Shown here in pieces: positions 3,573 through 58,045 of a DNA stretch of 64,000 nt. The translations under genes and the position numbers were made by a program. The stretch spans positions 17,325-81,324 of the forward strand of contig JANQLN010000067.1 of assembly GCA_028280575.1 (NCBI GenBank). Reading direction: 5' to 3'. The notes under the pieces were generated by a model. It was given only the letters and a program-made list of their open reading frames with translations. It ran no database searches and was not told the DNA's origin. Source of the stretch: Clostridia bacterium (GTDB lineage Bacteria; Bacillota; Clostridia; Acetivibrionales; STF1-152). Each line of letters begins with the position of its first letter. Position 1 is the first letter of the stretch.

Positions 3573-3595
3573 AAATATTACACTCCATTTATATA

Positions 3596-13709: not shown

Positions 13710-15155
13710 CTATTCACTGTAATAATCGGAAATTAACTGTTTTGCCTTTTCTTCTATGGCGTCCAGCGCGGAACCAGGCTCAACATCTTCCTTTCTGATG
13801 CTGTCAATTATTGCCGCATGGATAGGTCCAATATCAATGCCAAGCGTATATGTTGCTATGGACTTGCCATTATATTTCCTGTAAATTTCAACAGATTCAT
13901 CATCCCTGAAATTATCATCCCTCAATTTTTCATAAAACTCTTTTTCGTAGTCGTCAGGCTTTATTAAAATCTCATTTGTTATCTTTACGCTTTTTTCCCA
14001 GTCCTTTTCAGATGCGGTCATACAAAGGAAGCGCGCATCACTCATTGCCCAGCTTAATTCTTTGGCATTGGGGCCCTTGGGGAACAAAATCAATCCAAAA
14101 TCATCTTCCATTTCCCCGTTAAGCGTGGAAGACATATAAAAATCAAATGCCCAGAAAGCCGATTTCCCTTCCATGAATTGGGCCATATATGCCTTCCAGT
14201 CTCCCTTTGAAATATTCGGATCTACTACTTTATCTTTTAAAACCAGCTGTTTTCCAAAGTTTAAGGCTTCTATTGCTTCCGGTGTATTTAATCCATATTC
14301 CATTTTACCGTCAGCATTTTTATTAACAATCCTCGCATCATTGGAGAATAAAATTCCGAAGTCAAACATTCCACTGCCTCCTAAGCCCCATTGGTCGACA
14401 ATGCCGTCACCATCCGTATCCTTCGTAGTCGCCTTGCATATTTCACGGAATTTTTCCCACGTCCATTCCCCGCTTTCAATCAATTCATACGGGGACGGCT
14501 GGTTTTCATTTTCAAGCATGGTTTTATTAAAGAACATAACATTTCTCAATTCGGGAATTACATTGGAAAAGCCATACGTTTTCCCATTTATTGTTGACAT
14601 GTTGATATATGTCTGTTCCCATACCGGATTGTTCAAGTCAAAGCCGGGAACTTCTTTAAGGTCTGCCAGCACACCTGCTTTCCTGACTCTTTCAAAGCAC
14701 CATCCGGGAAGATCCATAAAATCGGCAAATTTGTCTCCTGCCATGACGGCGGTGGTAATACGTTCCACAGCCGTGCCACCGTCAAGCAGCTCGGTTTTTA
14801 TTTTAAAGTTCCACGCATCTTCCAAATCCCTCATTCTGTATAACAGCTCGTCGCTTCCCTCGCTGCGTCCTTCTTCTTCGGGATAATAAGCTGCAGGCCA
14901 GAATGTTACTATTGTATATTCATACCCTCCCAGGTCAGCAGGCTCCGGAGTCCGCTCGGCTGATTCCTCATCTTCTTTTTCGCCTTCCTGCTGCTTTTCT
15001 TCGGTGTCCGGTGAATCGCTTTTTCCGTTATCAGTAGCTTCATCCTTAACTGTTTCATCATCGCTTGCGTCTTTACCGCCGCATGCTGCAAAAAGTGATA
15101 AAGCCATTAAAAATACCAATAAAAATGAAATAACTTTTTTAAACTTATTATTCAT
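13710..15155 (-). CDS. ABC transporter extracellular solute-binding lipoprotein (family 1, carbohydrate type)
   Basis: Lipobox LFAACGG, an acidic linker, and an SBP_bac_1-like body. It sits downstream of two permease genes. Confidence 0.85.
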   Translation of the reverse strand: MNNKFKKVISFLLVFLMALSLFAACGGKDASDDETVKDEATDNGKSDSPDTEEKQQEGEKEDEESAERTPEPADLGGYEYTIVTFWPAAYYPEEEGRSEGSDELLYRMRDLEDAWNFKIKTELLDGGTAVERITTAVMAGDKFADFMDLPGWCFERVRKAGVLADLKEVPGFDLNNPVWEQTYINMSTINGKTYGFSNVIPELRNVMFFNKTMLENENQPSPYELIESGEWTWEKFREICKATTKDTDGDGIVDQWGLGGSGMFDFGILFSNDARIVNKNADGKMEYGLNTPEAIEALNFGKQLVLKDKVVDPNISKGDWKAYMAQFMEGKSAFWAFDFYMSSTLNGEMEDDFGLILFPKGPNAKELSWAMSDARFLCMTASEKDWEKSVKITNEILIKPDDYEKEFYEKLRDDNFRDDESVEIYRKYNGKSIATYTLGIDIGPIHAAIIDSIRKEDVEPGSALDAIEEKAKQLISDYYSE

Positions 15156-15373
15156 CCATTTAACCTCCTCTTCTTATTTTTGAGCAATTTGCGCTGCTAT
15201 GACTTTTAAATGCAGCATACTAATTTCAGCATTTTCGTTACTTGAAACGGCTGCCTACACAAATTGCTTTTTTTGGCAAATATCATCCATGTTTTATAAT
15301 TTTAACAATATACTTTTTAACCCTCCCTTTAGGTTATTTTATAAAACAAAAGATAATTGCCGCCGCCATCTAA

Positions 15374-16330
15374 TCAACCAACAATACCACTTCTCTCAAC
15401 TCCCTGTAAGAAAAGGTTTTGTGCAAATATATATATTATGATAAGAGGTGTTATTGTCAATAACAGTCCGGAATTTAAAAAGGCACTTATTATTACAGGA
15501 CTGTTCTCATATGCAATAGCTTTTGTTATATAATTGAGCAAAATATTTTTATTATTCATAAACAGCCCGCTGTAGAACGTATCTGTCCACTGCCAGCAAA
15601 AGCTCAGCAGGAAAACTGTCAGCATCATGGTGCGTGCATTGGGAAGCATAATGGAAAAAAATGTTTTAAACACTCCGCAGCCGTCAACATACGCGGCTTC
15701 CTCCAATTCCCCGGGCATGCTCCTGAAAAACTGACGCATTATATATATGTACAAGCCGTTTTTCAAGCCTAACCCTGTTAAAGATAAAATCCAAAATGGA
15801 AATGAAGTATCTATCAAATTAATCTGTCTTCCTGATATTGCCGTAACCAATCCTAATATGTCAAAAAATCTGAACTTCATAAACAATGGGATTAAAATTA
15901 CCTGGGGAGGTACCAGCAGGGTTAGAATCACCAGTGCAAATATTATGTTTCTGCCTTTAAAATGAAACCTGGCAAATCCGTAACCTGTCAGGGTACAAAC
16001 AATCAGCTGCAGCAGGCTGCTGGAAATTGTCTGTAATGAAAGATTTTTAAGACCCTCCCAGTAATCTATTCGTATAATGGTTTCCTTTATAAAAAATAAG
16101 GAAGGACTCTTTGCAATATAGTTCACAGTTTTATCAAGCATATCCTTTTCACTCATGATAACCCTTGTAAATTTATAAAAAAACGGATATATTATTAAAA
16201 ATGCAATACCCATAATGAGAATGGTCCTGATGAGTGCATACAAAAAATGTTTTAACTTCACTGGATTTAAATAACTTTTTATTCCTTTTTTCAGCCAGTT
16301 GAAATCCCTGGAAATCACTAAACCTTTCAT
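15374..16330 (-). CDS. Carbohydrate ABC transporter permease (MalG-like)
   Basis: Six hydrophobic segments and an EAA-loop region (EEAAYVDGCGVFKTFFSIMLP). Confidence 0.85.
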   Translation of the reverse strand: MKGLVISRDFNWLKKGIKSYLNPVKLKHFLYALIRTILIMGIAFLIIYPFFYKFTRVIMSEKDMLDKTVNYIAKSPSLFFIKETIIRIDYWEGLKNLSLQTISSSLLQLIVCTLTGYGFARFHFKGRNIIFALVILTLLVPPQVILIPLFMKFRFFDILGLVTAISGRQINLIDTSFPFWILSLTGLGLKNGLYIYIMRQFFRSMPGELEEAAYVDGCGVFKTFFSIMLPNARTMMLTVFLLSFCWQWTDTFYSGLFMNNKNILLNYITKAIAYENSPVIISAFLNSGLLLTITPLIIIYIFAQNLFLQGVERSGIVG

Positions 16331-16344
16331 ATCTATAACCTCCG

Positions 16345-17280
16345 CTACTCTTGATAAAAAACAAGCTTGGATGCAATTAAAGCTACTAAACCCAAAACCA
16401 CACTTATTGCTACAAAATAAAGCCAGCTCATGGCAGATGCATGGCCATATTCCGCCTGCCTGAAAGCCGTATTAAAAATAACATGCATCAACCTGTTTTC
16501 ACTGTCCGTCAGACGGTCAATAATTGTATAAATTGTATTTACCAATATTAAAGGGCTGATCATTGGAAAGGTTATTTTCCAGAAGTTTTCCCAGCTGGTT
16601 GCCCCTTCAATATATGATGCTTCATACAAGGCTGCAGGAATTGATTGCAATCCTCCTAAAAAAATCAGCAATTGTACGCCTGAATCTGTTATAACCTCAT
16701 ATAATCTAAACACGGCATCCAATATATATCCTATAAACCTGGGACCAAGATTTACATTCAGCAATAATCTTGTTATATCAAGCATCTGCCAGATTGTGTC
16801 AAATGTTGTCCCAAATTCACCGGTGTCCACACCCTCAAGGTCAATCATCCTGTTGAATATCATGTCCTTTGCTTCTATCTTCTGGACAATTCCCGTAGCT
16901 ATGATAACAGGTATAAAAAATATTGCCCTTGCCAGTGTTCTTCCTCTGAACTTCTCCTTGAGAATATTGGCCAGTAACAGGCTGAATATGATTATAATAG
17001 GTACATTCATAACCATATTTCGTACCGATTCAATTAGAAACCTGACATATTCAGGATCAACTCGTAAGGCAAAGTTATAGTTTTCCCATCCTATCCATTC
17101 CTTGACAAGCCCGTCCTTTGTATTGCTTATCTCCGAAAAGCTCATTAAAAAGGATTCAACAATAATACTACCATATATAAATACCAGCCCTATTATAACC
17201 GGCAGCAGGAATAAGTAGCCATAATAACCTTTTTTAGCTGTCAAACCTATTTTTCTTTTTTTAAAAAACATATCCTTCAC
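16345..17280 (-). CDS. Sugar ABC transporter permease (MalF-like)
   Basis: BPD_transp_1-like with an EAA loop (YEASYIEGATSWENFWKITFP). It overlaps the upstream gene's stop by 4 nt. Confidence 0.85.
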   Translation of the reverse strand: MKDMFFKKRKIGLTAKKGYYGYLFLLPVIIGLVFIYGSIIVESFLMSFSEISNTKDGLVKEWIGWENYNFALRVDPEYVRFLIESVRNMVMNVPIIIIFSLLLANILKEKFRGRTLARAIFFIPVIIATGIVQKIEAKDMIFNRMIDLEGVDTGEFGTTFDTIWQMLDITRLLLNVNLGPRFIGYILDAVFRLYEVITDSGVQLLIFLGGLQSIPAALYEASYIEGATSWENFWKITFPMISPLILVNTIYTIIDRLTDSENRLMHVIFNTAFRQAEYGHASAMSWLYFVAISVVLGLVALIASKLVFYQE

Positions 17281-19790
17281 TCCTGATACAAAGCATCAAT
17301 AACCTTTATTTCCCTGTTATTAACACTAACGGTATATTTATTATAATCAACCATTATTTTAATACCATTTTTATAAGTAGTCCTGTAAACACCGTCATCT
17401 ATTTTTTCATGATTTGAAATTGGCTGAAAAAATACGTCCGATAATACTTCTGAAAACAATTTATATGCCCTTGATGCTTCATCTGCCCAGAGGATATAAT
17501 TTGTAGAATATAAATATGTATAGGTGGTATTTTTAATAATTTCATTTTCAGCAAAATTTAACAAATAATATAATCCCGCGCCCGTCTCCAGGGATTTCAT
17601 AATTTCATACAGCGAATTTTCCGCAAGGTTCAATGGTTTTCCCGCATAGTTGATATACCCGCGGACAACAATCTGATAAAAAGGAATAGTTTCGTCTGCA
17701 ATTGTATAGTTGCTGGACGACATGGGCATATCCAAAATATGTCCTGCATATGGGAGAATATACGAAAAGCCTTCATCAAACATAATATCCATGTCCTGAA
17801 AATTCTTGCCTAATGACTCGACAACCATTTTCTTTGCATTTTCCCTGTTTACAGGATTCTTATTGTTATAATCCCCATTCAGATTGCCTCCCAATGTTCC
17901 CAGTGAAACCGTATCAAGCTTGTTTTTTCTGAAATTTTTTAAAAAATTATCCATATATTGATTAAGCTTTAACGGGCTTATGATATATTGGGGATACGAA
18001 TAATTGCTTATCAGGCCCTTTTCCATATCCCAATGGACCGCTATCCTCTTGTCAAGTCCTATTGATGCGTCACTTCTCGGGGTAAAGCCGTCAAAAAACC
18101 TATTTACCTCCGTATAGCAAAAATCCACATCAGGATAAAGGCTTATGCCATTATTATTTATATAATCCAAAAGCTTTTCAAAATCCTTTTTACCTCCAAG
18201 TTCCTTTTGATAGCTTATTTTATTGGGCACAGTATTTTTAAGCCCGCCATTCATCCATCCTGAATACTTCAAATGGATGTTGCCTATACCCCTGCCTTGC
18301 AAGCTTTCCATTATATCAATCGATTCCAAATATGAAGTCACCTTTTTTCTTCTGTCTACCGGTATACCGAATACCGGTTCCGTTTTTTCAATTGCTCCTA
18401 CTACTTCAAGATAGAAAGGTGCTCCTTTTTTTCTGTCAAGGGCGCGCAGCGCCCCTTTATCTATAAGATAATTCCTATATGTATCCGCCATTTGCACATA
18501 TCCTGCATTTTTTTCCGGTATAAAAAAATATTTTACCAATATATCGTCCTTATTCCCGTCTGATTCAAAAACGAATACGCCGTCTTTTTCCGACAAGCCT
18601 TCATATCGGTAATAATCCTTGTCGGTAATAGTAAAGCTTGGCCAAACGGAAAAATATTTATTTTCACCCTGGCTTGTCTTCACATCTATACTGGCTTGGG
18701 CATCGCTGCTTTCTATGACTGCGAGGTAAGCGTCTTCATCCCTTTTCATTCCATATACGGGAAGCCCCGCCTTTTCATTAAACAGCATAAACTTCTCAAA
18801 ATCCGTAGATATAACGTTATTACGGCCATAAACTTTCAAGGACAGATTTGAAGTATTCCTGTTTTTATCTTTAGTGTAAATAAGGGACCCGCAGCCGTCC
18901 GGCACCATTATATATCCGTCCGTAGAAGAATCTGCCGCTCCTAAATAATTCAGCAGGGAAAGCTTATGCAGGTAAAATTCTTCGTCATATTCAATCTCGG
19001 AAACAGGAAACCTCACAATAAGAGCATTATTTTCAATAGTATATTCAACAGGTATGGTAAATCTTGCATATACCTCTTCTTCTTCTATGAAATCAAACAT
19101 GCTGTGGTCGTAATCTTTATCCTCTATGGTGTATCCGGCTGTTTTTAAATATTCGCCAATGTCTCTTTTTTCCCTTGTCTTCATAGGACGGGCAACATAG
19201 AAATCATACTGTTCGGCCATAGGGTATTCTTTTAATATTTTCTTTTTGTCCTCCTCTCTCTTTATTTCCGAAAGCGAATAGAACTTATACAGCTTTTTTA
19301 ATCTCCTTAATGCTCTTTCATCTTCCTGGGGCTTTAATATAAGCTCTTCAAACCTGCTTTTCTCAATAATTTGAGGAACAATGCTCCTCTTTTCCATCCT
19401 TCCCAGTATATACTCTATTCTAAATCCATTGTCTATTTTTTTAATTTCAAACTGGTTTTTTTCCGCTGCGTCCGCCCAATTATTCATTTTAAACTCGCGA
19501 TTCATATTATCGTAAAAAATAATATCAAATTGGGAGCTCATTATTTTCTTTATTTCAGCACTAACCTTCAGCTCGTTTCTATCAATAGGATTTGAATTCC
19601 ATCCGGTATTTGTTTTTTTATTTGTTATATAAAATTCCGTTGTTTTCGGATCCAGATGAAACTTTAAATACTCATTTTCAAAGGTCAATTCACCTTCATA
19701 TTTACTATCAAGGGACTTATCCGCATAAACATTTGAAATGATTATGCTTATTATAGCAGCCGTTATTGCCATTGTTTTGATTTTTTTCAT
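17277..19790 (-). CDS. Secreted 837-aa protein, DUF5696-like (putative glycoside hydrolase; function unknown)
   Basis: It has a signal peptide. The family assignment is from memory of DUF5696 proteins found next to Yip1 genes. No canonical GH motif was recognised by eye. Confidence 0.6.
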   Translation of the reverse strand: MKKIKTMAITAAIISIIISNVYADKSLDSKYEGELTFENEYLKFHLDPKTTEFYITNKKTNTGWNSNPIDRNELKVSAEIKKIMSSQFDIIFYDNMNREFKMNNWADAAEKNQFEIKKIDNGFRIEYILGRMEKRSIVPQIIEKSRFEELILKPQEDERALRRLKKLYKFYSLSEIKREEDKKKILKEYPMAEQYDFYVARPMKTREKRDIGEYLKTAGYTIEDKDYDHSMFDFIEEEEVYARFTIPVEYTIENNALIVRFPVSEIEYDEEFYLHKLSLLNYLGAADSSTDGYIMVPDGCGSLIYTKDKNRNTSNLSLKVYGRNNVISTDFEKFMLFNEKAGLPVYGMKRDEDAYLAVIESSDAQASIDVKTSQGENKYFSVWPSFTITDKDYYRYEGLSEKDGVFVFESDGNKDDILVKYFFIPEKNAGYVQMADTYRNYLIDKGALRALDRKKGAPFYLEVVGAIEKTEPVFGIPVDRRKKVTSYLESIDIMESLQGRGIGNIHLKYSGWMNGGLKNTVPNKISYQKELGGKKDFEKLLDYINNNGISLYPDVDFCYTEVNRFFDGFTPRSDASIGLDKRIAVHWDMEKGLISNYSYPQYIISPLKLNQYMDNFLKNFRKNKLDTVSLGTLGGNLNGDYNNKNPVNRENAKKMVVESLGKNFQDMDIMFDEGFSYILPYAGHILDMPMSSSNYTIADETIPFYQIVVRGYINYAGKPLNLAENSLYEIMKSLETGAGLYYLLNFAENEIIKNTTYTYLYSTNYILWADEASRAYKLFSEVLSDVFFQPISNHEKIDDGVYRTTYKNGIKIMVDYNKYTVSVNNREIKVIDALYQE

Positions 19791-19820
19791 TAATAATTCA
19801 TCCCTTCTTTGTATCCTTTA

Positions 19821-21956
19821 TTACAATCTAAACATTATTTCCGTTGCAATATTGGACATAAAAGTAACCATTTTTCTGGTTAAAGTCAGAACAGCAACGG
19901 ACACAAAAATTAAAACACCCATGCCGGCAAACGTGAATATTGTTGTAATGGAATTTTTGGCAAAGGAATACTGATGTGTCACCATTAATCCGCATACTAT
20001 GAGAAAACCGGACCAAACCATGGAAAAATTCACAATCATCTGGTAAAACATTATTTCTTCATTCAGGATAAAATTGCTGTATACAAGCATTGGAATCCCA
20101 ATAATTATATAGGGAAAAATACCATAGGCAGTTGCAATAAATATATCCTGGAATGTACCTTCACCGTCCATTAATGTTGTAAGGCACCAGTTGGCTGTGC
20201 ACCAAAGAATCAGTATAAATAAAAAGCTCAGTATGTCTCTGGAAATATTGTAATATCTTACATTGATATCATTTATCAAAAAACCTGAATACAGATTTTT
20301 AGAAATGTTTAGTACAATTGCTATTGCAATAAATAAAATTGCAGCTTTTTTGCTTCCTCTTTTTTCATGCTTTAAGTCCCAATAGCCGTCAAAAGGATGA
20401 AAAATTAAATAGAATGCATACATAACCTCATCAAAAAATTTGCCTTTATACTTCTTAGCCTGTTTTACTTTTATTTCACTTTTAAAATATTTTTTCTTTA
20501 TGGCCGGACCTGCAAGTATCAATAAAATAATGATTGTTATAAGAATAAATATATACGGCATTTTTTTTGCAATAATGTCTTTTCTGTATTGTTCATAAGC
20601 CTTTGAATAATAATCCTTATAATTTGCCAGTTTAAAAAATTTCATTGCTTCATTATATTGTTCATTTTTATATTGATTTTTACCAATATAAATATACGCA
20701 AGGTCCATATTACTGTTATATTTAAGTATCTCTCTCCAGGCCTCGGTGGATTCCTCATATTTTCTTTCCCCGTATAATTTCAAAGCACTGTCCAGGATTT
20801 TACCGTATTGTGTTTTTTTAAAAACCGTTATCGAACCTTTTTTCTTATCAAGTACAAGCATGTTATCACCAGAATGCTTTATTGAAGACGCATATAGAAA
20901 AGCACCGTCAACATTTCCTTCCGTACCGAAGACATACAGCAGGTTCCCTTCATAATCGTAAGTGAAAATCCTGTTCCTTTTCATATCCAGGACACTATAG
21001 CTGTCGTTATCCGTCACATCAATATCTATAAGGACGGAAGGCCCTGTTGCCCTGTCAAAAACAATCTCCCCCACAGGAGGAAAATACCCGTTGCGCCTTA
21101 GGATATCATCGCCGGAGATGTTAAGGCGTTTAACAGGAAATATTTTATCTTTTTTTTCCCTGCCTCTGATAATTGATCTGATCTCCGACTCACTAACCGT
21201 ACTGGATGTTACATACAAAAAGCCCTTGCTGTCTATTGTAATATTATTAAATTCGGTAGGTACAAACCTTGCTATCCTCTTTCTCTGTTCTTCCGACGAT
21301 ATTCTTTTCCACATATAGTCAACCATGTTCTTCTGCACCTTTTGTGCCCCTAAAAAACCCTCAAAGTGACCGTCGTTTCTCAATTCAATAATTCCCAGGT
21401 TAACATTTTCAGCTACAACATAAATTCTTTCAGCCTTATCGACAACCAGCGCAGTCGGATTGTATACAAAATCGTCAGGCAAAAACTCTGTTTCAGGTAC
21501 TCCTATTATGGCTACAAGCTCTCCGTTTTGGTTCAATCTTACTATCCTGTGGTTTTTTGTATCTGCAATGTAAAGATCGTTATTTTCAGAAACAAAAATA
21601 CCCTGTGGCTCGTTAAAGGTTTCCCTGTTACCATCTGCTTCAAAGCCATCTATTATCCTTATCAATTCAAAATCACTGCTGAATACGACAATACGGTGGT
21701 TACCGGTATCCGCAATATATATATTCCTGTCTTTGTCTATAAACATGTCCGAAGGCTCCGACAGAAAATCCACACCCATATTCTCACCAAAAAGTATTCT
21801 TTCAGGCAGGAAAACATTTGGCGACTGGTTGGTATCTCCCCAATAGGAATATGTATACGTTTTATATGGGACAGAAGCTGCTAAGCCTGCTTCGCCGCCC
21901 ACCGCAAGTATAATTAATAATACAATAGCAAATAAAAACCGTTTCTTAATATTCAT
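19821..21956 (-). CDS. Fusion membrane protein: extracytoplasmic NHL-repeat beta-propeller, TPR-like segment and C-terminal Yip1-family polytopic domain
   Basis: NHL repeats are visible (IADTGNHRIVVF, IADTKNHRIVRL). The block YEESTEAWREILKYN...YNEAMKFF is TPR-like. The C-terminal domain begins HPFDGYWDLKHEKRG and is followed by five hydrophobic helices. I chose the ATG at 21956, preceded by GAGGTGG. Confidence 0.7.
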   Translation of the reverse strand: MNIKKRFLFAIVLLIILAVGGEAGLAASVPYKTYTYSYWGDTNQSPNVFLPERILFGENMGVDFLSEPSDMFIDKDRNIYIADTGNHRIVVFSSDFELIRIIDGFEADGNRETFNEPQGIFVSENNDLYIADTKNHRIVRLNQNGELVAIIGVPETEFLPDDFVYNPTALVVDKAERIYVVAENVNLGIIELRNDGHFEGFLGAQKVQKNMVDYMWKRISSEEQRKRIARFVPTEFNNITIDSKGFLYVTSSTVSESEIRSIIRGREKKDKIFPVKRLNISGDDILRRNGYFPPVGEIVFDRATGPSVLIDIDVTDNDSYSVLDMKRNRIFTYDYEGNLLYVFGTEGNVDGAFLYASSIKHSGDNMLVLDKKKGSITVFKKTQYGKILDSALKLYGERKYEESTEAWREILKYNSNMDLAYIYIGKNQYKNEQYNEAMKFFKLANYKDYYSKAYEQYRKDIIAKKMPYIFILITIIILLILAGPAIKKKYFKSEIKVKQAKKYKGKFFDEVMYAFYLIFHPFDGYWDLKHEKRGSKKAAILFIAIAIVLNISKNLYSGFLINDINVRYYNISRDILSFLFILILWCTANWCLTTLMDGEGTFQDIFIATAYGIFPYIIIGIPMLVYSNFILNEEIMFYQMIVNFSMVWSGFLIVCGLMVTHQYSFAKNSITTIFTFAGMGVLIFVSVAVLTLTRKMVTFMSNIATEIMFRL

Positions 21957-21972
21957 ATAAGCCCACCTCATA

Positions 21973-22833
21973 CTACTCCTTCATTCCTGACGTTGACATT
22001 GTCGTAATTATATTGCTTTGCGTAAGCAAAAAGATCAAAACGGGAACAACCATCATCAGGACACCTATGGCCGAACCGACACCGGCCCTGGCAATTCCCC
22101 CCGCAATAATTTGACCCAGTGCATAGTTTAGTGTTTTCATTTCTTCCCTGTAAATATATACTGTATTCCCTATATTCCATAAGCCTTGAAAGGAAAATAT
22201 TATAAGGGTCAGCCATGCAGGTTTAACAATTGGCATAACAATTATCCAAAACATCTTCCATTCACTGGCACCGTCTATCCTGGCAGATTGAAGCATAGCG
22301 TCAGGAAGCATTTGCTCCATAAACTGCTTCATCAAATACAATCCTAAAGGTGCTGCAAACGCGGGAACAATCAATGACCAAAATTTATCAATCCATCCCA
22401 GGTTTGCAATAATAAGATAGTTTGGTATGGCTGTAACAGTTGCATTGAACATCAGCGAAAGCACTATAATATTAAAAATCAATCTTGCGCCGTAAAATTT
22501 GTGCTTTGCAAGTGCATAGGCACACATTGACGACAAAATAACATGGCCTGCGGTACCGGCTATCGATATAAAAAACGTATTAAAAATATACCGGGAAAAG
22601 GGTACCCAGGAATTTGACATTATAATAAAAATATCTCTGAAATTCTTTAATGTCGGCCTTCTCACAAAAAATCTGGGAGGAAAAAGCCATAATTCGTTAA
22701 ATGGCTTAAAAGCATTGCTTATAGCATATACAACCGGCAGTGCCATAAATATGCCGGTTAATGCTATAAATACAAATATACCCAAATCTCCGCCAAAGGA
22801 ACGATTTAATCTCTTACCTGATTTTTGCATCAT
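21973..22833 (-). CDS. Carbohydrate ABC transporter permease (MalG-like)
   Basis: Contains an EAA loop (LQSARIDGASEWKMFWIIVMP) and six hydrophobic segments. Confidence 0.85.
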   Translation of the reverse strand: MMQKSGKRLNRSFGGDLGIFVFIALTGIFMALPVVYAISNAFKPFNELWLFPPRFFVRRPTLKNFRDIFIIMSNSWVPFSRYIFNTFFISIAGTAGHVILSSMCAYALAKHKFYGARLIFNIIVLSLMFNATVTAIPNYLIIANLGWIDKFWSLIVPAFAAPLGLYLMKQFMEQMLPDAMLQSARIDGASEWKMFWIIVMPIVKPAWLTLIIFSFQGLWNIGNTVYIYREEMKTLNYALGQIIAGGIARAGVGSAIGVLMMVVPVLIFLLTQSNIITTMSTSGMKE

Positions 22834-23793
22834 TTAAGCATCACCAATCTTTGATAATAGGCGTTTAATAATAATGTTTGTCAAGATCATAACTACAAAT
22901 AGTATGGTGGCAATTGAAGAAGCATATCCCATTTCAAACCTGATTGCACCATAATCCTCCAAATGGTTTATTATTGTATGTGCGGCATAGTCGGTACTCG
23001 GAAAGCCGCACAAATTTGTGACTATGCTTCCCACTCCGAAGGAAGCCGTTATACTCATAACTGCCCCGAACATTAACTGTGGTTTCATGGAAGGAAGTGT
23101 TATATACCATAATTCCTGCCATCTGTTTTTTGCACCGTCAATTGCTGAAGCTTCATATAGTGATTTGTCAACACCTTGCAATCCGGCAATAAAAGCCAAA
23201 AAGCTTGTTCCAATACTTGTCCATAGAGCCACAATGATAACAAGAGGCAAAATGTATTCTTTATTATGAAACCATTGAATCGGCTCTGAAATTGCACCCA
23301 TTTGCAGAAGCATCCCGTTAGCATATCCATAGCTGTCCCCATTAAACATAATAGTCCACACAAGGTAAATGTTTCCTGATATTGAAGGCGCATAAAAGAC
23401 CAATGTGACAAAAGCCCTTATTTTTGGAGTCAGCTCATTTATTATCCATGCAAAAATGAGGCTGAGCATATAGCTTACCGGTCCTGTTACAAGTGCAAAC
23501 ACTATAGTGTTTTTTATGGCAGTAAGAAATATATCATCGTATAAGAATAACTTAATATAGTTGTCGAAGCCTACAAATTTAGGAGGTTCAAGTATATTGA
23601 AATAGGTAAAGCTGAAAAACATGGAAATAACAACAGGGAGCATTGTAAATAAACAGAATAATAATAAATATGGTGCAATGAACATGTATGATACCCTGCT
23701 GTTCTTCAATTCTCTGATTATTCCATTAATTCTGCCTTCACCCTTATTGTCTAAAAGAGCCAAACTTTTTTTTGTAGTTGTAATACTGCTCAT
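22834..23793 (-). CDS. Sugar ABC transporter permease (MalF-like)
   Basis: Contains an EAA loop (YEASAIDGAKNRWQELWYITLP). It directly abuts the next permease gene. Confidence 0.85.
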   Translation of the reverse strand: MSSITTTKKSLALLDNKGEGRINGIIRELKNSRVSYMFIAPYLLLFCLFTMLPVVISMFFSFTYFNILEPPKFVGFDNYIKLFLYDDIFLTAIKNTIVFALVTGPVSYMLSLIFAWIINELTPKIRAFVTLVFYAPSISGNIYLVWTIMFNGDSYGYANGMLLQMGAISEPIQWFHNKEYILPLVIIVALWTSIGTSFLAFIAGLQGVDKSLYEASAIDGAKNRWQELWYITLPSMKPQLMFGAVMSITASFGVGSIVTNLCGFPSTDYAAHTIINHLEDYGAIRFEMGYASSIATILFVVMILTNIIIKRLLSKIGDA

Positions 23794-23826
23794 TGCTAAC
23801 CCCCTGAGCTTTTTCTATCAAAGCTT

Positions 23827-26682
23827 CTAATACAGACTCAAACCAAATTCCTTACGTTTTTTATTAATCTCGTCATTAATGGTCCTTACAAAATCCAGGA
23901 GTGTTTCTTCAGGCTGTTCTCCGTCATTTACAACTCTTCTATATGCAAAATCCAGATACCTGGTAGTATAGTAACCGCCTGGAACTTCCGGTATGCCTTT
24001 AACCCATTCCCACTGGTCCATAAGACTTTTATAATGCCTTTGGGGCCATGGTATTTCATACATTGCTTCAATATTGGCAGTAGCATTCCTGGCAGCCGCC
24101 CCCATTATACATTCCAATTCCTTGCTGTAAGCACTCTGGGTATCTTTCTCTGTCCACCATTTCATAAATTCCCATGCGGCACCTTTATCTTCTGTCTGGG
24201 CCAGCATAATACAACCGCCTCCGCCGCCGGGACCCGACCTGTCAATAGTATTATTGTTCTCATTAATAGTGCCCGGTAAAGGTATAAAATCCCATAATCC
24301 TTTTATTTCAGGCGCAAACAGGGTCAATTGGTTATAGTCCGTATAATTAGTAATTCCAATAGGCATTTCACCTGTTCTAAAACGGTTAATGAAATTATAT
24401 GTAATTTGGAGCTTATAGTTGGTATACAGCTCAGTCCATTGGTTAAACGCATCTATTGCAATTTCTGAATCAAGATTCGAACGCACGCCGTCCCTTACGT
24501 AAAGAGAACCGTCATTTTGCATGAGCTTAATCATGTAACCGTTAAAACCCATTGGATAACCAAACTCCAGGTTTTTCTTCTGAAGAACGGGGATTATATC
24601 ATATACGTCTTTCCATGTATCCGGCAGGCTTACACCCAGCTCTTCCATAATATCCTTCCTGTAAAACATCATCATAAAGGTTTGTGTTTCGGGAAGTGCG
24701 TAAACTCCCTCGTTATACCTGTAAGGAACAAGGGCGCTGCCGTAAAACCTTTTTGCTACATCATCATAGCTTTCAAAGCCTGATAATTCGGTAATGGCAT
24801 TTCTTGCCGCATAGTTTACAACATCTCCTCCCGGTATCTGAAGTGCTATATCCGGACCTATCCCTGCTAAAGCAGCAGGCAGGAGGGAACCTGCAGGCGC
24901 GAGCTGAACATTTGCATTAATGCTATGATATGGGGTAAAGCTGTTTTCGGTCAGCTCTTTCAATATCTGTGCCTGGTCCCTTCCGCCGGCTGAAAGCCAT
25001 ACGGTAACATTTCTATATTTTTTATCGGCTTCTAAATTAATGCTCCCTATTGTATTGTAATCCTCTACAAAAGATGCTGCAAAAGCTTTGATCTCATGCC
25101 ACATCCTTTTAATAAATCCGGCATCCGCTTTCGGAAGCTTTTCATCCGGTGACAAAAGCATTATATAATCAATTATTAATGGCTGTTCACCGGTGTTTAA
25201 AATCCATTCGCCCAAGCCGCTGACGTTTTCCTTGAAATTTTTGAAGCTTGATGCAATCATCTCCGGCCTTGACGACATTTTCTCAAGCTGGAAGGCAAGC
25301 TTGTCAAGCATAACAACATCCTGTCCCTTTTCACCGTTAATCCTTTCAAATTCCGCGGAGATATTATCTAAAATCCGTGCCTGTGAATCAAAAACATCCA
25401 GTGTATCCGGAATCAGTCTATCAAAGGCGTAATCACGGTAAATATCCGGCTCCGGACCTGTTATCATTAAAATTTTCCTGTAGGCGTTATTTAACTTTAA
25501 AACACTGTTTTTCAGAATCCTGTGTACATCTGCCCAATCGCCCAATGTTACATTAAGACTTATTTCATGCTTGCCTTTTGATAAATAAAACAAGTAATCC
25601 TTCTCACCATCTCCAAGCGTATTTATCTGCCATTTGCTGTCATAGTTGAATCTTAATTTTTCAGCTTCACTAAAGGGTGTTTTACCGTTTATCAGCAAAT
25701 GCCTGCTTGTAAACAATCCGGCTTTGGTGTTTTGCTTAAACCTGACTGCAATTTTATACAATCCGCTTTCAGGTACATCCATTTCCCATGTAATCCACTG
25801 TCCCGGAATTCTCCACCGCTCACCGCCAATGGTATTCAATCTTATTTTCGAAGCATGGTATGGCTGCGTTATAGGAGACGTCCTGTCATTAACTGCATAA
25901 AGGGTGGGGTCCGACTTGTATTTAGATTTTTCAGCCTGGATCACAACCTCCTGTCCCTTTGTACTTTGATATCCTCTTTTTTTATAGACCTGTTCAATTT
26001 CAGAATAGGATAAAACGGGTTCTCCCTTATATAATTTAAGCCATGCAATCATCATCGGCTCTTTTATGGACTCAAATCTGACAGTATGTTTTCCCCTTGT
26101 AAAATAAAACCTGTACGGTTCGTTATAATAACCGGTATTATCCATCAGGTCTGTTTCAATCCACATAGGGGATTGTTCCTGGGTGGGCCTTAACTCATTA
26201 TCCAAAATGTCTATTTTAATATCACCGGCATCAACCCAAACTCGTGTAAAAATAAGGTTGTTTAATTCTTCAAAGGCAGTCTTGCCGTTTATCTTTAACC
26301 TTCTTTCAATAGAGCTTCTTTTACCTTCTACAGGGTAGTACTTTATTGCTATATTATAAAATCCCGCCTTTTCAACATCTAATTCCCACTCTATAAAACC
26401 CTCGTCGGTAGTAATTATTGACAATCCGTCAAGGCCTTCAAAATCCTTTTTCATTTCAATACTCATATTTGTATGGGTATAATCATGGGCATTTATAAAA
26501 ATCGTATCATCGGCAAAATCCTTATCTGAATGATTGTTTTTATACTGCTCATAATCCATATATTTTTCAGGGCCTTCAGCATAAGAGGCTAAACCAAAAA
26601 ACAAGCACAAAAATATTATAATAAACCCATATGTAAAATATATCAATCTAAATCTTATATTGAATAGAGCGCCGGTTTCCAT
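23827..26682 (-). CDS. Giant (951 aa) extracellular solute-binding protein with two N-terminal CBM-like modules
   Basis: N-terminal anchor or signal. Two internally repeated modules are visible (IEWELDVEKAGFYNIAIKYY...LKINGKTAFEE and ITWEMDVPESGLYKIAVRF...LLINGKTPFSE). The C-terminal half is SBP_bac_1-like. Confidence 0.75.
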   Translation of the reverse strand: METGALFNIRFRLIYFTYGFIIIFLCLFFGLASYAEGPEKYMDYEQYKNNHSDKDFADDTIFINAHDYTHTNMSIEMKKDFEGLDGLSIITTDEGFIEWELDVEKAGFYNIAIKYYPVEGKRSSIERRLKINGKTAFEELNNLIFTRVWVDAGDIKIDILDNELRPTQEQSPMWIETDLMDNTGYYNEPYRFYFTRGKHTVRFESIKEPMMIAWLKLYKGEPVLSYSEIEQVYKKRGYQSTKGQEVVIQAEKSKYKSDPTLYAVNDRTSPITQPYHASKIRLNTIGGERWRIPGQWITWEMDVPESGLYKIAVRFKQNTKAGLFTSRHLLINGKTPFSEAEKLRFNYDSKWQINTLGDGEKDYLFYLSKGKHEISLNVTLGDWADVHRILKNSVLKLNNAYRKILMITGPEPDIYRDYAFDRLIPDTLDVFDSQARILDNISAEFERINGEKGQDVVMLDKLAFQLEKMSSRPEMIASSFKNFKENVSGLGEWILNTGEQPLIIDYIMLLSPDEKLPKADAGFIKRMWHEIKAFAASFVEDYNTIGSINLEADKKYRNVTVWLSAGGRDQAQILKELTENSFTPYHSINANVQLAPAGSLLPAALAGIGPDIALQIPGGDVVNYAARNAITELSGFESYDDVAKRFYGSALVPYRYNEGVYALPETQTFMMMFYRKDIMEELGVSLPDTWKDVYDIIPVLQKKNLEFGYPMGFNGYMIKLMQNDGSLYVRDGVRSNLDSEIAIDAFNQWTELYTNYKLQITYNFINRFRTGEMPIGITNYTDYNQLTLFAPEIKGLWDFIPLPGTINENNNTIDRSGPGGGGGCIMLAQTEDKGAAWEFMKWWTEKDTQSAYSKELECIMGAAARNATANIEAMYEIPWPQRHYKSLMDQWEWVKGIPEVPGGYYTTRYLDFAYRRVVNDGEQPEETLLDFVRTINDEINKKRKEFGLSLY

Positions 26683-26875
26683 TAATTAAAGCTGCACCTC
26701 CCCCTTCACAAAGCTTCATGGCAAGTAAAATTAAGTATATATTTATTCGATCCGCCTTCATGTGGTTTTTGTGTGTTTTGTATATTTTTTATCACATATA
26801 GCCATCAGTATCTGTATGTTATTAATAATATAACATTATATTAATTAAGTCAATAGTATATATCAACTAAATCAT

Positions 26876-29800
26876 CTAGTATCCGGAATTGTCTATAAGG
26901 TCCACTTTTCCGCCTTTAACCTCAACATTGACATTAAATCTGCCCAAACAGCCTTCTATTTTACCGCTGCTGCCTGCTTCATAAGTAAAATCCTTTGCAG
27001 AACGCGGATATGTATCACGCACAAAAGTACAGCCGTATGCATTAAGGGCTCCCCCGTCATTTATCCTTCCATCTTTCGCATGCCATGCGGTATACTGGAC
27101 AAGGTTTACGGTGCCGCCTTTGATTTCGCAGGTCCTCATTCCCGGGCCCCATGCATTGCAGTTAAACAAGTTGACTACCCCGTCAAATGACTCCGTAGTG
27201 TATACATTGGCAGCAACCGGTCCTTCCAGCGAAACATCCATCAATTGGATTATATCCAATTTTTTAACTTCATCTACATGTATTCCGAACTCATTTACAT
27301 CAAGTCCCCAGCCATATATTACTCCGTCAAAGCCGCCTTTTTTGTCGTCAACAAATTTAATTCCATACTTTATCAATATCTGGAAATTATGAAGGGTATT
27401 ATAATTTTTACAAGACCCAAATAAAAATCCTGTAGTTGCATCCAGGCAGTACTGATGCAATTCCTCTGTTCCAGGACGGGGATACTTTGAAAACGTCCAG
27501 TTTGAAGGATTAAAATGAACATTCTGCATCCAGCCGCCGTCAATCCCATTACCTGCCTGGACTCCTATATCAAGGGCAAGCCCGTGAATTCCGTCCAAAA
27601 TATGCATGCTGCAGTCGTTGCTCATCATATCAATACCCCTGTACGTATTTACAAAACAAACATCTGTAATCCAGCTTTCTATATTACCCCGTATGGACCA
27701 GGGATATTCAGCAAATTTACCTTCTTTGAGTTCCTGTTCCGGATAATAAAAAGCAATTCCTGAAATTCCGGCTCTCGTTTCAAGTGAAATCAAAGGTTCA
27801 CCGTCAGCCTTGCCTTTTCCTCCATAGGCCATAATTATTGTCCCGTTCATTGCACTGCCATGATGCTGGGCAGCAAACGAACCTCTTAGCTCAACCCCCT
27901 CCGGTACCACCAGGGACGTGTCAATACGGTACTTGCCCGCAGGAAGGTATACAACTCCCCCTCCTTCAGCAGAAGCATTATTGAGTGCTTTTTGTATTGC
28001 AATTGTATCGTCGTGCTCAACATCCGCATATGCATTAAACGGCTCAAGCATAACATTATAGAAATTATCCGTATTGCCGGGCATAGGCTCAGGGGCAAAT
28101 ATATGATTGTATTGAGGCATTTCAGGTATGTCAACAGCCTTTTCACCGTAAATCAGCTTTACGCCTGAAGGAACTTTGATTTCTTCTTGCAGCATATTTT
28201 TATTTCCGCGTATGATAGCAGAGTTTACTTTGTCGGACAAATATACCTGGTTTTTCATTTTTGAAAATTCACAATCCTGTATCATTAGAGAACCCCTGTT
28301 GACCGCTATTGCATAATTACCACTGTCGGCTTTCCATGACTTAAAGCTTGAATCATATAAATTGAGAACAGGGCGTGCACCTCTCCTGGCATTTAATTCT
28401 ATACAAATGTCCGGATCGCCCCCAAACTCGGTTTTACTTATCTGGATAATCACATTGACCTTGCTCGGGTCGGAATCAAACCCATTAAATACCAGGCACT
28501 TCGGATTCTCCCCTACCGACGCATATATGCTGCTATATGCAATCTGGAGTCCCGGATATGATATCCTATTGATTTTTATGCCCTTATTCACATTTCTTGT
28601 CTTGAGATAGGCTATTGCAGAATTACTGTCATTAAATTCAATACCTGTATGCACATCTTCGGCATAAATATTATAAAAATATCCCCAATCAAGCCTGTGC
28701 ATGTTCATGGCAACAGCATTACTTCTCATATAATTTACAAATTGTTCCTTATCACTGCTGCTTTTTGGCGCACCTTCCAATCCCGATTCCATCCAATACT
28801 TCGGACTGAAATAAATATTTTCAAATCTTGGGACATCGGCAGTATTATTCTGCCACATTCCGGTACTTAAGGGAGTCGCATATATATTCCTATACAGATT
28901 GCAACCGTTAAAAATCTTGCCCTGGCCCAGTTTTAATCCATTATATGAATTATAAAGCGTTACATTCATTACAGTAAGATAGCCCTGTCTCTCACTGCCC
29001 TGTATTGTATACGGATAGGGTACTATATTATCAAAGCTTTGTTCCGGATACCAGATACTTATATTTTTAACAGCACAATTTAAGGCTGCGCTGATAAAAG
29101 GCGTGCCGCTATCTTTTCCTCTTCCCGCATATGCCATTAAAATAGTCCCTTTACCCAAACCGCCTTCGTCAGGGCTTAACCAGTCTCCTTCAATGGATAC
29201 GCTTACGGGAAGCTTTAAGTTCCCTTCTATCCTGTACTTTCCTTCAGGCACATAAAGAACTCCGCCGCCCTTTTCACTTATTTCATTCAAAGCCGTTTGA
29301 AACTCTTCCGTTAAATCTGCATCCGTGTCCGGTACCACACCATAGTCCAATATACTTGCATCATAGACTATAAAATTCCCGTTAGACGCTTTTGCTCCTG
29401 CCAAACTTTTCTTCATGTCTATTTTCACCTCACCCAATCCAATTACACCTTCCTTACGAAGAACAGATGTAAATTTTAATTCATGAATACCCGGACCCAC
29501 TTTTATGTTCTGGGCAGATATCATATTGTATTTATCCATTTTACCTGTTTTATTAAGTGTATAATTCTTAATCTTTTTGTCATTTATTTCAAGTTTGAGC
29601 CTGGCTTTATAATCCAGGGATGAAACATTGAAAGATATGTCAATGTCTTTGTATCCGTCGGAAAACAAATAATATGAGACATATTGATTATCCTTTTCAA
29701 GTACTGTTATTTCTTTATTGTCAATATTTTCTACTCTGGTTTTATGGGAATCTCCCGGAATGGCTTTTGCAGCATCCAAAACACATGGAATGGAAAATAA

Positions 29801-30196
29801 TGCATCCGGTTTATCAAATTCTTTATTGAATTCAATATTAACCGACTCAACTTCAAAATCGGTTTTATCGTAAGCAGCATCCGATCTTATGTTGATTTTA
29901 TTTTTCCCCTTTTTAAAATAGACCTTTATATCCTGTGTAGCTGTAAGAGTATTTTTGCCGGACGAAAAATAGTAGCTGCCGGTGATTGGCTCGTCATTTA
30001 TATATATTTTTCCAAATCCTACACCGGTATAGCTAAAATTAATGTTGTACAAACCGTTTTGCTTTGCAGAATATTTATGTGAGTACACTTCATGGGTATC
30101 CCCGTCTTTATCCTCTGTGCTGCCGCACCCTGCTGCCAGGGGCAATAATAGTATAACAGCAAACAAAAAAATACTTCTGAATAATATTTTATACAT
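26876..30196 (-). CDS. Lipoprotein with CBM-like N-terminus and two tandem right-handed beta-helix (Pectate_lyase_3-type) domains; GH55-like
   Basis: Lipobox LAAGC. There are two copies of the beta-helix N-terminal signature (GGGVLYVPEGKYRIEGNL and GGGVVYLPAGKYRIDTSL). Tandem arrangement is the GH55 architecture. Confidence 0.65.
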   Translation of the reverse strand: MYKILFRSIFLFAVILLLPLAAGCGSTEDKDGDTHEVYSHKYSAKQNGLYNINFSYTGVGFGKIYINDEPITGSYYFSSGKNTLTATQDIKVYFKKGKNKINIRSDAAYDKTDFEVESVNIEFNKEFDKPDALFSIPCVLDAAKAIPGDSHKTRVENIDNKEITVLEKDNQYVSYYLFSDGYKDIDISFNVSSLDYKARLKLEINDKKIKNYTLNKTGKMDKYNMISAQNIKVGPGIHELKFTSVLRKEGVIGLGEVKIDMKKSLAGAKASNGNFIVYDASILDYGVVPDTDADLTEEFQTALNEISEKGGGVLYVPEGKYRIEGNLKLPVSVSIEGDWLSPDEGGLGKGTILMAYAGRGKDSGTPFISAALNCAVKNISIWYPEQSFDNIVPYPYTIQGSERQGYLTVMNVTLYNSYNGLKLGQGKIFNGCNLYRNIYATPLSTGMWQNNTADVPRFENIYFSPKYWMESGLEGAPKSSSDKEQFVNYMRSNAVAMNMHRLDWGYFYNIYAEDVHTGIEFNDSNSAIAYLKTRNVNKGIKINRISYPGLQIAYSSIYASVGENPKCLVFNGFDSDPSKVNVIIQISKTEFGGDPDICIELNARRGARPVLNLYDSSFKSWKADSGNYAIAVNRGSLMIQDCEFSKMKNQVYLSDKVNSAIIRGNKNMLQEEIKVPSGVKLIYGEKAVDIPEMPQYNHIFAPEPMPGNTDNFYNVMLEPFNAYADVEHDDTIAIQKALNNASAEGGGVVYLPAGKYRIDTSLVVPEGVELRGSFAAQHHGSAMNGTIIMAYGGKGKADGEPLISLETRAGISGIAFYYPEQELKEGKFAEYPWSIRGNIESWITDVCFVNTYRGIDMMSNDCSMHILDGIHGLALDIGVQAGNGIDGGWMQNVHFNPSNWTFSKYPRPGTEELHQYCLDATTGFLFGSCKNYNTLHNFQILIKYGIKFVDDKKGGFDGVIYGWGLDVNEFGIHVDEVKKLDIIQLMDVSLEGPVAANVYTTESFDGVVNLFNCNAWGPGMRTCEIKGGTVNLVQYTAWHAKDGRINDGGALNAYGCTFVRDTYPRSAKDFTYEAGSSGKIEGCLGRFNVNVEVKGGKVDLIDNSGY

Positions 30197-34497: not shown

Positions 34498-34608
34498 TAT
34501 TTTCCCCCCGGCCAAATCAAAGATGTACATGCATTTTTAAATATCATTTATTTTATCATTTTATTTGCTCTCAAAAAATATATATAAATTGTATTAATTG
34601 ATATATAT

Positions 34609-44564: not shown

Positions 44565-44832
44565 AATAATATAACTCCTTTGCAGTTATTATTCATACGG
44601 CGGGTCAAATTTTCTGCTTTTTTAATTATAAACGTAAAAATAATATCTTTAAATGGATAAAAAAGATATCTTTTATAAAATTCAGTTATTTTTTTGAATT
44701 AGCAGGCAAATTAAATTATAATTATCAATAGAAACAGCTTTAATTCTTGCATTATGACGTTAAATCCGGAAGCAGGCAATTAGTTAATGCAAAAGTGATT
44801 ATTTATATAATTAAGGGCGGTGTTTAATAAAA

Positions 44833-57791: not shown

Positions 57792-58045
57792 AAAAAACCT
57801 TTCGCCCATATATAAGGACGAAAGGTATAAGCTCCGCGGTACCACCTTATTTCTATACATTGTTGCCAATATATACTTAAGCAAGCATAAAATACTTGGA
57901 CTATTAACGTAAGTCAGCGCATCACCTACTGATATTCAGTGATGAGGCTCAAGAACGAGCTATATGTACTACCGTTCCGGTTCACACCAACCACCGGCTC
58001 TCTTTGAATCAATATGTACAGTTTTTTTCCCTCAACGCCTTAATC
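57792..58045 (-). promoter_or_regulatory. T-box leader (tRNA-sensing riboswitch), probable Leu (CUC) specifier
   Basis: Minus-strand elements: K-turn-like GTTGAG...CTTGAGCC, an AGAGAG bay (58003-57998), a distal-loop GGTGTGAA, the T-box AAGGTGGTACCGCGG (57848-57834), and the terminator ACCTTTCG...CGAAAGGT plus TTTTTT (57826-57792). By analogy with glyQS, the specifier is CTC at 57959-57957. Confidence 0.85.

Follow-up and report, generated by a model that had tools for sequence, protein, structure and literature searches.

Which function would call for a giant solute-binding protein (SBP), two pairs of ATP-binding cassette (ABC) permeases, an NHL-TPR-Yip1 membrane protein and a DUF5696 protein to be encoded side by side? 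This question is raised by a tightly packed gene cassette in a contig of a Clostridia bacterium (JANQLN010000067.1), of which we analyzed a stretch of 64,000 nucleotides (nt), referred to below as the window. An earlier note on this DNA had put forward five of these genes as an undescribed system of unknown role. On balance, we lean towards the view that the locus encodes a conserved and self-contained surface machine for the capture, trimming and import of a glycan, which is organized in two linked modules. The import direction, hydrolysis, complex formation and substrate are those parts of this view that we infer.

Gene order and modules of the cassette

The five open reading frames (ORFs) of the earlier note, located on one strand and separated by tiny gaps, were recovered with the same coordinates and spacing, and Pfam agreed with the domains proposed for them (SBP, two permeases, NHL plus Yip1, DUF5696). 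However, the five-gene unit itself could not be maintained, because the packing continues past position 17277 and the conserved unit comprises seven to eight genes, including a second permease pair. All eight genes of the cassette are located on the minus strand:

23827..26682, minus strand: giant SBP, module A, 951 amino acids (aa) (Pfam SBP_bac_1/8)
22834..23793, minus strand: permF1, MalF/UgpA-type ABC permease, module A, 319 aa (Pfam BPD_transp_1; NCBIfam UgpA/MalF-like matches)
21973..22833, minus strand: permG1, MalG/UgpE-type ABC permease, module A, 286 aa (Pfam BPD_transp_1)
19821..21971, minus strand: NHL-TPR-Yip1 membrane protein (NHL-Yip1), module B, 716 codons (Pfam NHL and Yip1)
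17277..19790, minus strand: DUF5696 protein, module B, 837 aa, secreted or anchored (Pfam PF18952)
16345..17280, minus strand: permF2, divergent MalF-type permease, module B, 311 aa (Pfam BPD_transp_1, partial, residues 204-303)
15374..16330, minus strand: permG2, MalG-type permease, module B, 318 aa (Pfam BPD_transp_1)
13710..15155, minus strand: small lipoprotein SBP, optional eighth gene, 481 aa (Pfam SBP_bac_1; lipobox LFAAC)
26825..26853, minus strand: promoter-like TTGACT-17-TATTAT, a consensus match only, within the 193 nt that precede the giant SBP gene

The whole block covers positions 13710-26682. The gaps between the first five genes, from the giant SBP to DUF5696, are 33, 0, 1 and 30 nt long. 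permF2 begins with a 4-nt overlap with the stop codon of DUF5696, permG2 follows 14 nt further on, and a gap of 218 nt separates it from the small lipoprotein SBP. None of the intergenic gaps of the cassette contained a terminator in a scan for promoters and terminators, the counts of which were no higher than in shuffled controls.

Carriers of the cassette were identified by scanning one genome per species with an alignment of NHL-Yip1. The protein is encoded in at least 534 species genomes, and at least 990 relatives in the database share its length and architecture. The neighborhood counts given here refer to the best 80 loci, for which ORFs were called and assigned with profiles of the window proteins. 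Wherever the contig allows, the genes follow each other on one strand in the order giant SBP, permF1, permG1, NHL-Yip1, DUF5696, permF2, permG2. DUF5696 is located immediately downstream of NHL-Yip1 in 72 of 72 loci and permG1 immediately upstream of it in 74 of 76; permF2 comes after DUF5696 in 65 loci, and the position of permG2 is also conserved. The exact seven-gene order was scored in 50 of the 52 evaluable loci, or in 51 if one counts L002, which keeps the order beside an extra permease fragment of another transporter, while L008 is rearranged. The linkage of Yip1, DUF5696 and a large SBP, for which the earlier note had named Paenibacillus and Clostridia genomes, is very strongly kept.

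The carriers belong to Paenibacillus, Cohnella, Bacillus, Hungateiclostridiaceae, Oscillospiraceae, Acutalibacteraceae, Lachnospiraceae, Halanaerobiales and Natronincola, with Bacillus sp. FJAT-28004 (L002) and Paenibacillus baekrokdamisoli KCTC 33723 (L011) among them, and a search starting from the giant SBP added Haloplasma contractile and a metagenome-assembled genome (MAG) of the Spirochaetaceae. The median identity of the window proteins to their homologues in the 80 loci was highest for permF1 (60%) and permG1 (57%), followed by permF2 and permG2 (41%), the giant SBP and NHL-Yip1 (37%), and DUF5696 and the small SBP (28%). Seven DUF5696 homologues were looked up individually. Five of these (P0004, P0012, P0016, P0040, P0042) are part of a cassette, and the two most distant and shortest ones (P0047, P0049; 705-768 aa) are found solo among housekeeping genes. 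Overall, DUF5696 comprises 7,624 clusters at 50% identity (E <= 0.001).

The family of the small SBP is present in 11 of the 80 loci (L002, L006, L008, L011, L012, L014, L022, L032, L051, L075, L080; 430-570 bits) and scores 553 bits in L084. A small SBP_bac_1 gene occupies the same position in L086 and L087, and weaker matches to the family were obtained in L089 (129 bits) and L090 (278 bits). Most Oscillospirales loci have no small SBP within 10 kb, and their giant SBPs are larger; the cassette forms of the giant SBP range from about 950 to 1330 aa.

The block consists of module A (giant SBP, permF1, permG1) and module B (NHL-Yip1, DUF5696, permF2, permG2). In two loci, L008 and L032, the small SBP, NHL-Yip1, DUF5696, permF2 and permG2 are encoded apart from the giant SBP and permF1. 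The same division was seen in pairwise-distance matrices from 56 complete loci. Distances correlated with r 0.92-0.96 among NHL-Yip1, DUF5696, permF2 and permG2, with r 0.84-0.91 among the giant SBP, permF1 and permG1, and with r 0.71-0.84 between the two modules, and partial correlations agree with this split. The value for permF2 with NHL-Yip1 was 0.94, and permG2 reached 0.93 with both DUF5696 and NHL-Yip1. This co-variation is no more than suggestive, but it agrees with the rearranged loci. Because of both lines of evidence we assign NHL-Yip1 and DUF5696 to the second permease pair, which is their closest partner.

Components of the two modules

The giant SBP matched SBP_bac_1/8 at residues 580-856 (76.8 and 69.8 bits in Pfam; the small SBP scored 60.9 bits for SBP_bac_1). 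Its AlphaFold2 (AF2) model (pLDDT 86.9) predicts an N-terminal transmembrane (TM) helix, two β-sandwiches (residues ∼61-218 and 245-379), a four-helix bundle (383-498) and an SBP domain of the oligosaccharide type (502-951). Two internally repeated modules resembling a carbohydrate-binding module (CBM) had been noted before. The repeat was confirmed by BLASTP (E 3e-9); the CBM label stayed below the curated Pfam thresholds in the window protein (CBM_35, 18.1 bits vs 28; Golvesin_C, 25.7 vs 31.6) and is partly backed by homologues and fold. Among 26 homologues, 5 matched CBM_35 at E <= 0.01 (best 4e-8) and 16 matched Golvesin_C, and one further homologue (P0203) has a precomputed CBM_35 assignment. 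A minority of the homologues and the predicted fold thus support calling the sandwiches CBM35-like. When Foldseek was run with the whole model, matches to the SBP domain prevailed and the N-terminal sandwiches were not classifiable by fold; the best matches were SBPs for cycloalternan, sophoro-oligosaccharides, cycloisomalto-oligosaccharides and maltodextrin. Homologues of the giant SBP from Bacilli, Clostridia, Haloplasma and a spirochaete are 45-51% identical.

The four permease genes of the window make up two pairs, in line with the two BPD_transp_1 permeases of a CUT1 transporter. Permeases of the BPD_transp_1 family that work with SBP_bac_1 proteins belong to the type I importers. The importer reading is supported by the SBP_bac_1/8 and BPD_transp_1 domains, and also by the structural neighbors of the SBP, which bind long or cyclic oligosaccharides. 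No ORF combining Walker A and LSGGQ motifs, as expected of an ABC ATPase, was found in or beside the cassette of the window or the cassettes of the 80 loci. Since CUT1 systems of the Bacillota commonly take their ATPase in trans, the missing gene does not exclude function.

The suggestion that the 837-aa protein is DUF5696-like proved correct, with a Pfam match of 605 bits (cut-off 25.6) over profile positions 14-608 of 612. In its AF2 model (pLDDT 87.8), an N-terminal β-sandwich is followed by a TIM barrel and a C-terminal β-sandwich. Foldseek placed the GH129-like DagB first (E 7e-31), then NagBb, and then members of the glycoside hydrolase (GH) families GH101, GH36 and GH31; for the GH129 matches the TM score was 0.71-0.75 on the target at 12-13% identity. 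The earlier guess of a TIM-barrel or GH31-like core is borne out by the GH31/GH36-like core of the model, with GH129 as the closest structure. Compared with the PDB, the family profile matched DagB (E 1e-11) and NagBb (7e-9) only over the N-terminal domain, the beginning of the barrel and the C-terminal sandwich, and the single window sequence matched NagBb with an E of 0.008. DagB is built from the same three domains. Its catalytic residues include Asp486, which is located on the barrel, and Asp202, which is contributed by the N-terminal domain; only the nucleophile is common to DagB and NagBb (PMC5698469).

The best-kept polar residues of DUF5696 are D298, D324, D640, R649, N675, N721, E735 and N815 (92-100% in 144 diverse representatives). 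D640, kept in 88-97% of the members, falls where Asp486 of DagB is expected, and D324 lies near Asp202, both by an interpolation between anchors that does not make the mapping secure. No conserved acid/base residue was found in the family. The protein had been proposed as a putative hydrolase. The glycosidase fold stood, and the proposal follows from this fold, as catalytic residues could not be assigned. Hydrolytic activity is plausible for the family.

Further observations concern the variety of DUF5696 proteins. In L089, a second DUF5696 paralogue (16189-18292) is encoded right after the cassette; it has a weak Pfam Glyco_hydro_101 match and therefore provides an independent link of the family to GH101. 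Many Clostridia MAGs from gut or rumen (e.g. L013, L015, L017, L018 Oscillospiraceae, L020, L079) encode DUF5696 proteins that reach 1,200-1,993 aa, in which an Ala/Glu/Lys-rich coiled-coil insertion separates the barrel from the last β-sandwich. This insertion may be a stalk. In the window protein, Asp672-Glu673 is found in a region where most members have Gly-Gly (673-674).

The NHL-Yip1 ORF has 716 codons from its first ATG; translation probably starts at Met6, where the homologues start, giving a protein of 711 aa. Both the NHL (PF01436, 61.6 bits, cut-off 20) and the Yip1 (PF04893, 51 bits, cut-off 28.6) matches are above threshold, the latter relating residues 521-690 to positions 2-171 of the 173-residue profile. 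The NHL part matched the propellers of TRIM71, NHLRC2 and PknD in the PDB (E 1e-13 to 5e-19), and six NHL repeat motifs were read by eye in the family alignment, suggesting a six-bladed NHL propeller as ectodomain. For the TPR-like stretch of the window protein, no TPR family reached E <= 0.01 and designed TPR proteins in the PDB matched weakly (E 0.05-0.3). Many full-length homologues carry precomputed TPR_1/2/16 matches. The NHL-TPR-Yip1 architecture described before thus holds for its first and last parts, and its middle part lacks a match at this level in the window copy. A hydropathy scan predicts a signal or anchor at the N terminus, one TM helix (473-491) and, beyond a Lys-rich loop, the five Yip1 helices at 539-557, 580-598, 612-630, 646-664 and 677-695. 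According to this predicted topology, the conserved loop HPFDGxWDLKHEKRG would be cytoplasmic.

The fusion had been regarded as a derived form of a stand-alone Yip1 protein encoded elsewhere. Our results do not agree with this view: the fused form is found in 76 of the 80 best loci, and in the remaining 4 the protein is split into two genes. Split genes also occur in L082, L084, L086 and L087, with L084 representing the closest DUF5696 relative of the window. In each split pair, a gene for a 480-502-aa NHL-TPR-TM protein is directly upstream of a Yip1 gene of 207-220 aa; the pieces map to positions 1-490 (propeller, TPR, first TM) and 504-708 (Yip1) of the fused profile. The fused form is therefore the common one, and the stand-alone Yip1 genes are fission products that always adjoin an NHL-TPR gene. 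This pattern argues for a joint function of the ectodomain and the Yip1 domain.

Yip1 proteins had also been described as lacking any assigned function in bacteria. This is not entirely so, since YknW, the Yip1 protein of the Bacillus subtilis YknWXYZ system and the only one in bacteria to which a role has been ascribed, modulates the assembly of the ABC transporter (PMC4887032). For this reason, a role in assembly or positioning is the most economical one to suggest for NHL-Yip1.

We propose the following mechanism. Module A would be a type I (CUT1) ABC importer of permF1 and permG1, and the membrane-tethered giant SBP would bind a polymer or long oligosaccharide at the cell surface before handing it over to these permeases. 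DUF5696 would debranch or cleave the captured glycan. A second importer would be formed by permF2 and permG2, in the window together with its own small lipoprotein SBP. With the NHL propeller and TPR facing outwards and the Yip1 helices in the membrane, NHL-TPR-Yip1 may serve as an accessory subunit that, in analogy to YknW, positions DUF5696, the glycan or both at permF2/permG2. The ATPase would come in trans.

Flanking genes and competing explanations

Upstream of the cassette, the window contains the following context genes:

26876..30196, minus strand: surface lipoprotein, 1106 aa, containing two PF12708 modules of the pectate-lyase fold, outside the conserved cassette (Pfam; lipobox)
30223..34530, minus strand: cytoplasmic GH2 enzyme, 1435 aa, lacking a signal peptide and containing an F5/8 type C domain (Pfam)
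34693-35817 and 36290-37405, minus strand: two tandem AraR-type regulators, each with a GntR helix-turn-helix and a LacI-type sugar-binding domain (Pfam)

The PF12708 lipoprotein weakly matched AlgE C5-epimerases and an exo-polygalacturonosidase in the PDB and had no homologue in the 80 loci. A PF12708 protein encoded after the L089 cassette was considered as an orthologue and rejected, as the two have only an N-terminal motif in common. The GH2 enzyme, whose PDB matches are β-glucuronidases and β-galactosidases, is preceded by a promoter-like sequence of its own (TTGACA-17-TATAAT). The tandem regulators are 66% identical to each other, and regulators 31-34% identical to them adjoin the cassette in L002, L006, L011, L012, L022 and L075. 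A search for a shared operator upstream of the GH2, giant SBP and regulator genes did not yield a convincing common motif.

Directly downstream of the small SBP, the window encodes a 274-aa protein (12638-13462, minus strand) that combines a signal peptide with a sortase-type wall anchor at the C terminus (NPETG motif, TM helix, RKR tail) and has no Pfam match. It could be a wall-anchored glycan-binding member of the locus. On the upstream side of the GH2 gene, at a distance of about 8.5 kb, the window encodes an SGSH_C-domain sulfatase and, divergently from it, an AraC regulator (43059-45729). In the catabolism of carrageenan, DagB acts together with sulfatases and GH2 enzymes (PMC5698469); the parallel may be coincidental. 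More distant parts of the window contain a T-box leader (57811-58044, minus strand; 105.6 bits) upstream of an acetolactate-synthase-like gene, which is followed by ilvN, ilvC and a leuA-like gene, and a gene for a resistance-nodulation-division (RND) transporter (AcrB-like, 1073 aa) with an adjacent TetR regulator (2973-6817, minus strand). RND transporters are uncommon but known in Bacillota. An origin of the region from a phage or mobile element was considered and rejected, as the region shows no shift in composition and is bordered by housekeeping genes of the chromosome.

In the other loci, an α-mannan set was found five times, comprising GH125 and three GH76 genes in L002, a CBM6-GH76 gene in L014 and GH38 in L006, L012 and L022, with an AraR-type regulator in most of them. 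Other flanking enzymes are three GH36 and one GH95 in L082, GH9 in L086, GH3 and GH10 in L008, and GH32 in L051. Flanking genes are not conserved between loci, and the seven-gene form is mostly found among housekeeping genes. Our best guess for the substrate is an α-linked glycan, because of the fold family of DUF5696 and the recurrent α-mannan context. This context recurs in Bacilli, and α-mannan would be at most a candidate substrate for the window. Since the flanking enzymes vary, a single substrate cannot be named.

Several points weigh against a surface machine as proposed above. The literature searched held nothing on DUF5696 or PF18952, nor any experimental datum for a component of the cassette. 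The best 80 loci are top matches and not a random sample, and the mirror-tree correlations are confounded by shared ancestry and come without a significance test. The flanking enzymes differ so widely that no single substrate emerges. Within 10 kb, most Oscillospirales loci show no second SBP, regulator or other carbohydrate-active enzyme (CAZyme) and have housekeeping flanks, a setting that is unusual for a nutrient-scavenging locus. Concerning the enzyme, the profile of the catalytic half of DUF5696 gave only chance matches in the PDB, with no residue alignment to GH129, and one of D298, D324, D640 and N675 is substituted in about 20% of the members, mostly from Asp to Asn. The window copy itself has N324 and F675 at positions where the family has D in 93-95% and N in 90-92%. 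Its D-N-D-F set is unique among 251 sequences, the consensus being D298/D324/D640/N675, and its active site may be altered or inactive. Hydrolysis is therefore doubtful in detail for this copy.

The alternative that survives best, although we consider it unlikely, is an ordinary Gram-positive polysaccharide-utilization locus (PUL). Two independent CUT1 importers, a glycosidase and an NHL protein would be co-regulated without forming a complex, the Yip1 domain would be a mere anchor, and the NHL protein would itself be an enzyme or binder (a lactonase, lyase or glycan binder). Every part is indeed of a known kind, NHL/SGL propellers include enzymes and NHL-Yip1 has a weak SGL match in Pfam, co-regulated genes often stay ordered without a complex, and CAZymes and AraR-type regulators flank several loci. 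But a single TM helix already anchors the ectodomain in both split and fused proteins, and yet the five-helix Yip1 domain is always kept, with its invariant motifs on predicted cytoplasmic loops. Moreover, the near-invariant gene order over Bacilli, Clostridia, Halanaerobiales, Haloplasma and a spirochaete goes beyond loose co-regulation, and the tight co-variation of module B exceeds what is usual for loosely co-regulated PUL genes.

A more demanding version of the proposed machine is one supramolecular importer of an as yet undescribed kind, in which DUF5696 would take both the gene position and the role of the binding protein of permF2/permG2, cleavage would be mechanically coupled to uptake and NHL-TPR-Yip1 would be an obligate third membrane subunit. 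We give this version a low probability. If true, it would be the first defined role of the Yip1 family in bacterial import, and DUF5696 would represent a new family of glycoside hydrolases or of pseudo-glycosidase receptors.

A role in turning over or recycling an envelope glycopolymer made by the cell itself, such as a secondary wall polymer, a capsule or a peptidoglycan-linked glycan, appears still less probable. It would fit most Oscillospirales loci, which are located among iscS/nifU/mnmA, a ROK kinase gene and alaS with neither a regulator nor another CAZyme, and the cassette of Haloplasma contractile, which lies amid genes for peptidoglycan enzymes (Glucosaminidase, SpoIID, a beta-lactamase-like protein and NamZ). 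Likewise, the unusually high conservation of the giant SBP and permF1/permG1 (37-60% median identity) fits one common ligand. However, the Bacillus, Cohnella and Halanaerobiales loci lie within α-mannan GH76/GH125/GH38 sets, others are found in foraging-type CAZyme sets with sugar-responsive repressors, and the CBM-like modules of the SBP suggest that an external polymer is captured. As a separate observation, the surroundings of the Haloplasma contractile cassette (L087, 1-9938 and 21566-22895) also include GHL10 and DUF624 genes.

It is quite improbable that NHL-TPR-Yip1 is a sensor or gate, whose ectodomain detects the polymer or the DUF5696 product and whose membrane domain regulates permF2/permG2 or signals. 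Extracellular NHL propellers serve as sensors elsewhere, with PknD being among the PDB matches, and the best-conserved Yip1 motifs are predicted to be cytoplasmic, but the protein has no recognizable output domain and the seven-gene loci have no conserved cognate regulator. An export or assembly system for exopolysaccharide or a surface layer can practically be dismissed: the long DUF5696 stalks with up to ∼1000 residues of coiled coil recall surface-layer proteins and YknW belongs to an exporter, but BPD_transp_1 and SBP_bac_1 proteins form type I importers and no gene for a glycosyltransferase, flippase or polymerase is linked.

Comparison with known systems

The closest relatives of the transporter parts are CUT1 importers of the MalEFG/MsmEFG type, which also consist of an SBP_bac_1/8 protein followed by a MalF-like and a MalG-like permease and have no ATPase gene in the operon. 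Importers of this type are energized in trans by MsmX/MsmK-like ATPases. In contrast to them, the binding protein of the cassette has about 950-1330 aa, a TM tether, two CBM-like sandwiches and a helical stalk, and two permease pairs are obligatorily linked, with NHL-TPR-Yip1 and DUF5696 encoded between them in a near-invariant order.

The YknWXYZ system likewise has a polytopic membrane protein of the Yip1 family within an ABC-transporter operon (PMC4887032). But YknYZ is an exporter of the MacB type that has a membrane-fusion protein, unlike the type I importer permeases that are the partners of the cassette Yip1, and YknW lacks the NHL/TPR ectodomain. The likeness is one of Pfam family. DUF5696 has its three-domain architecture in common with NagBb (a GH129 α-N-acetylgalactosaminidase), DagB (a 3,6-anhydro-D-galactosidase) and the GH101 endo-α-GalNAc-ases, and D640 in the barrel and Asp residues in the N-terminal domain recall Asp486 and Asp202 of DagB. 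It differs from GH129 by an identity of 12-13%, a catalytic half without sequence match and the lack of an assigned acid/base residue.

Bacteroides α-mannan PULs (MAN-PULs), reportedly described by Cuskin et al. in 2015, are said to encode GH76, GH125, GH38 and GH92 enzymes. The first three of these families also flank the cassette in Bacillus sp. FJAT-28004, Cohnella and Halanaerobiales. Uptake depends on SusC/D in the MAN-PULs and would depend on ABC importers in the cassette loci; the window has a GH2 enzyme and a β-helix lipoprotein instead, and most cassette loci have no flanking CAZymes.

The literature searched contained no link of Yip1 and NHL proteins to sugar ABC importers and nothing on the cassette, and the large DUF5696 family was not mentioned in any publication found, in agreement with the earlier claim of an undescribed system. 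The cassette is found in at least 534 species, including many uncultured Oscillospirales from gut and rumen and Paenibacillaceae from soil. For experiments, the unit is the set of seven to eight genes, in which NHL-Yip1 and DUF5696 go with the second permease pair. Taken together, the parts are of known kinds; what the literature searched does not describe is their obligatory arrangement in this combination and order, with two permease pairs and a Yip1 subunit. A defined function would provide a candidate for a new family of glycoside hydrolases akin to GH129/GH101 and a testable role for bacterial Yip1 proteins, and it would explain how Gram-positive bacteria handle large glycans at their surface without SusC/D.

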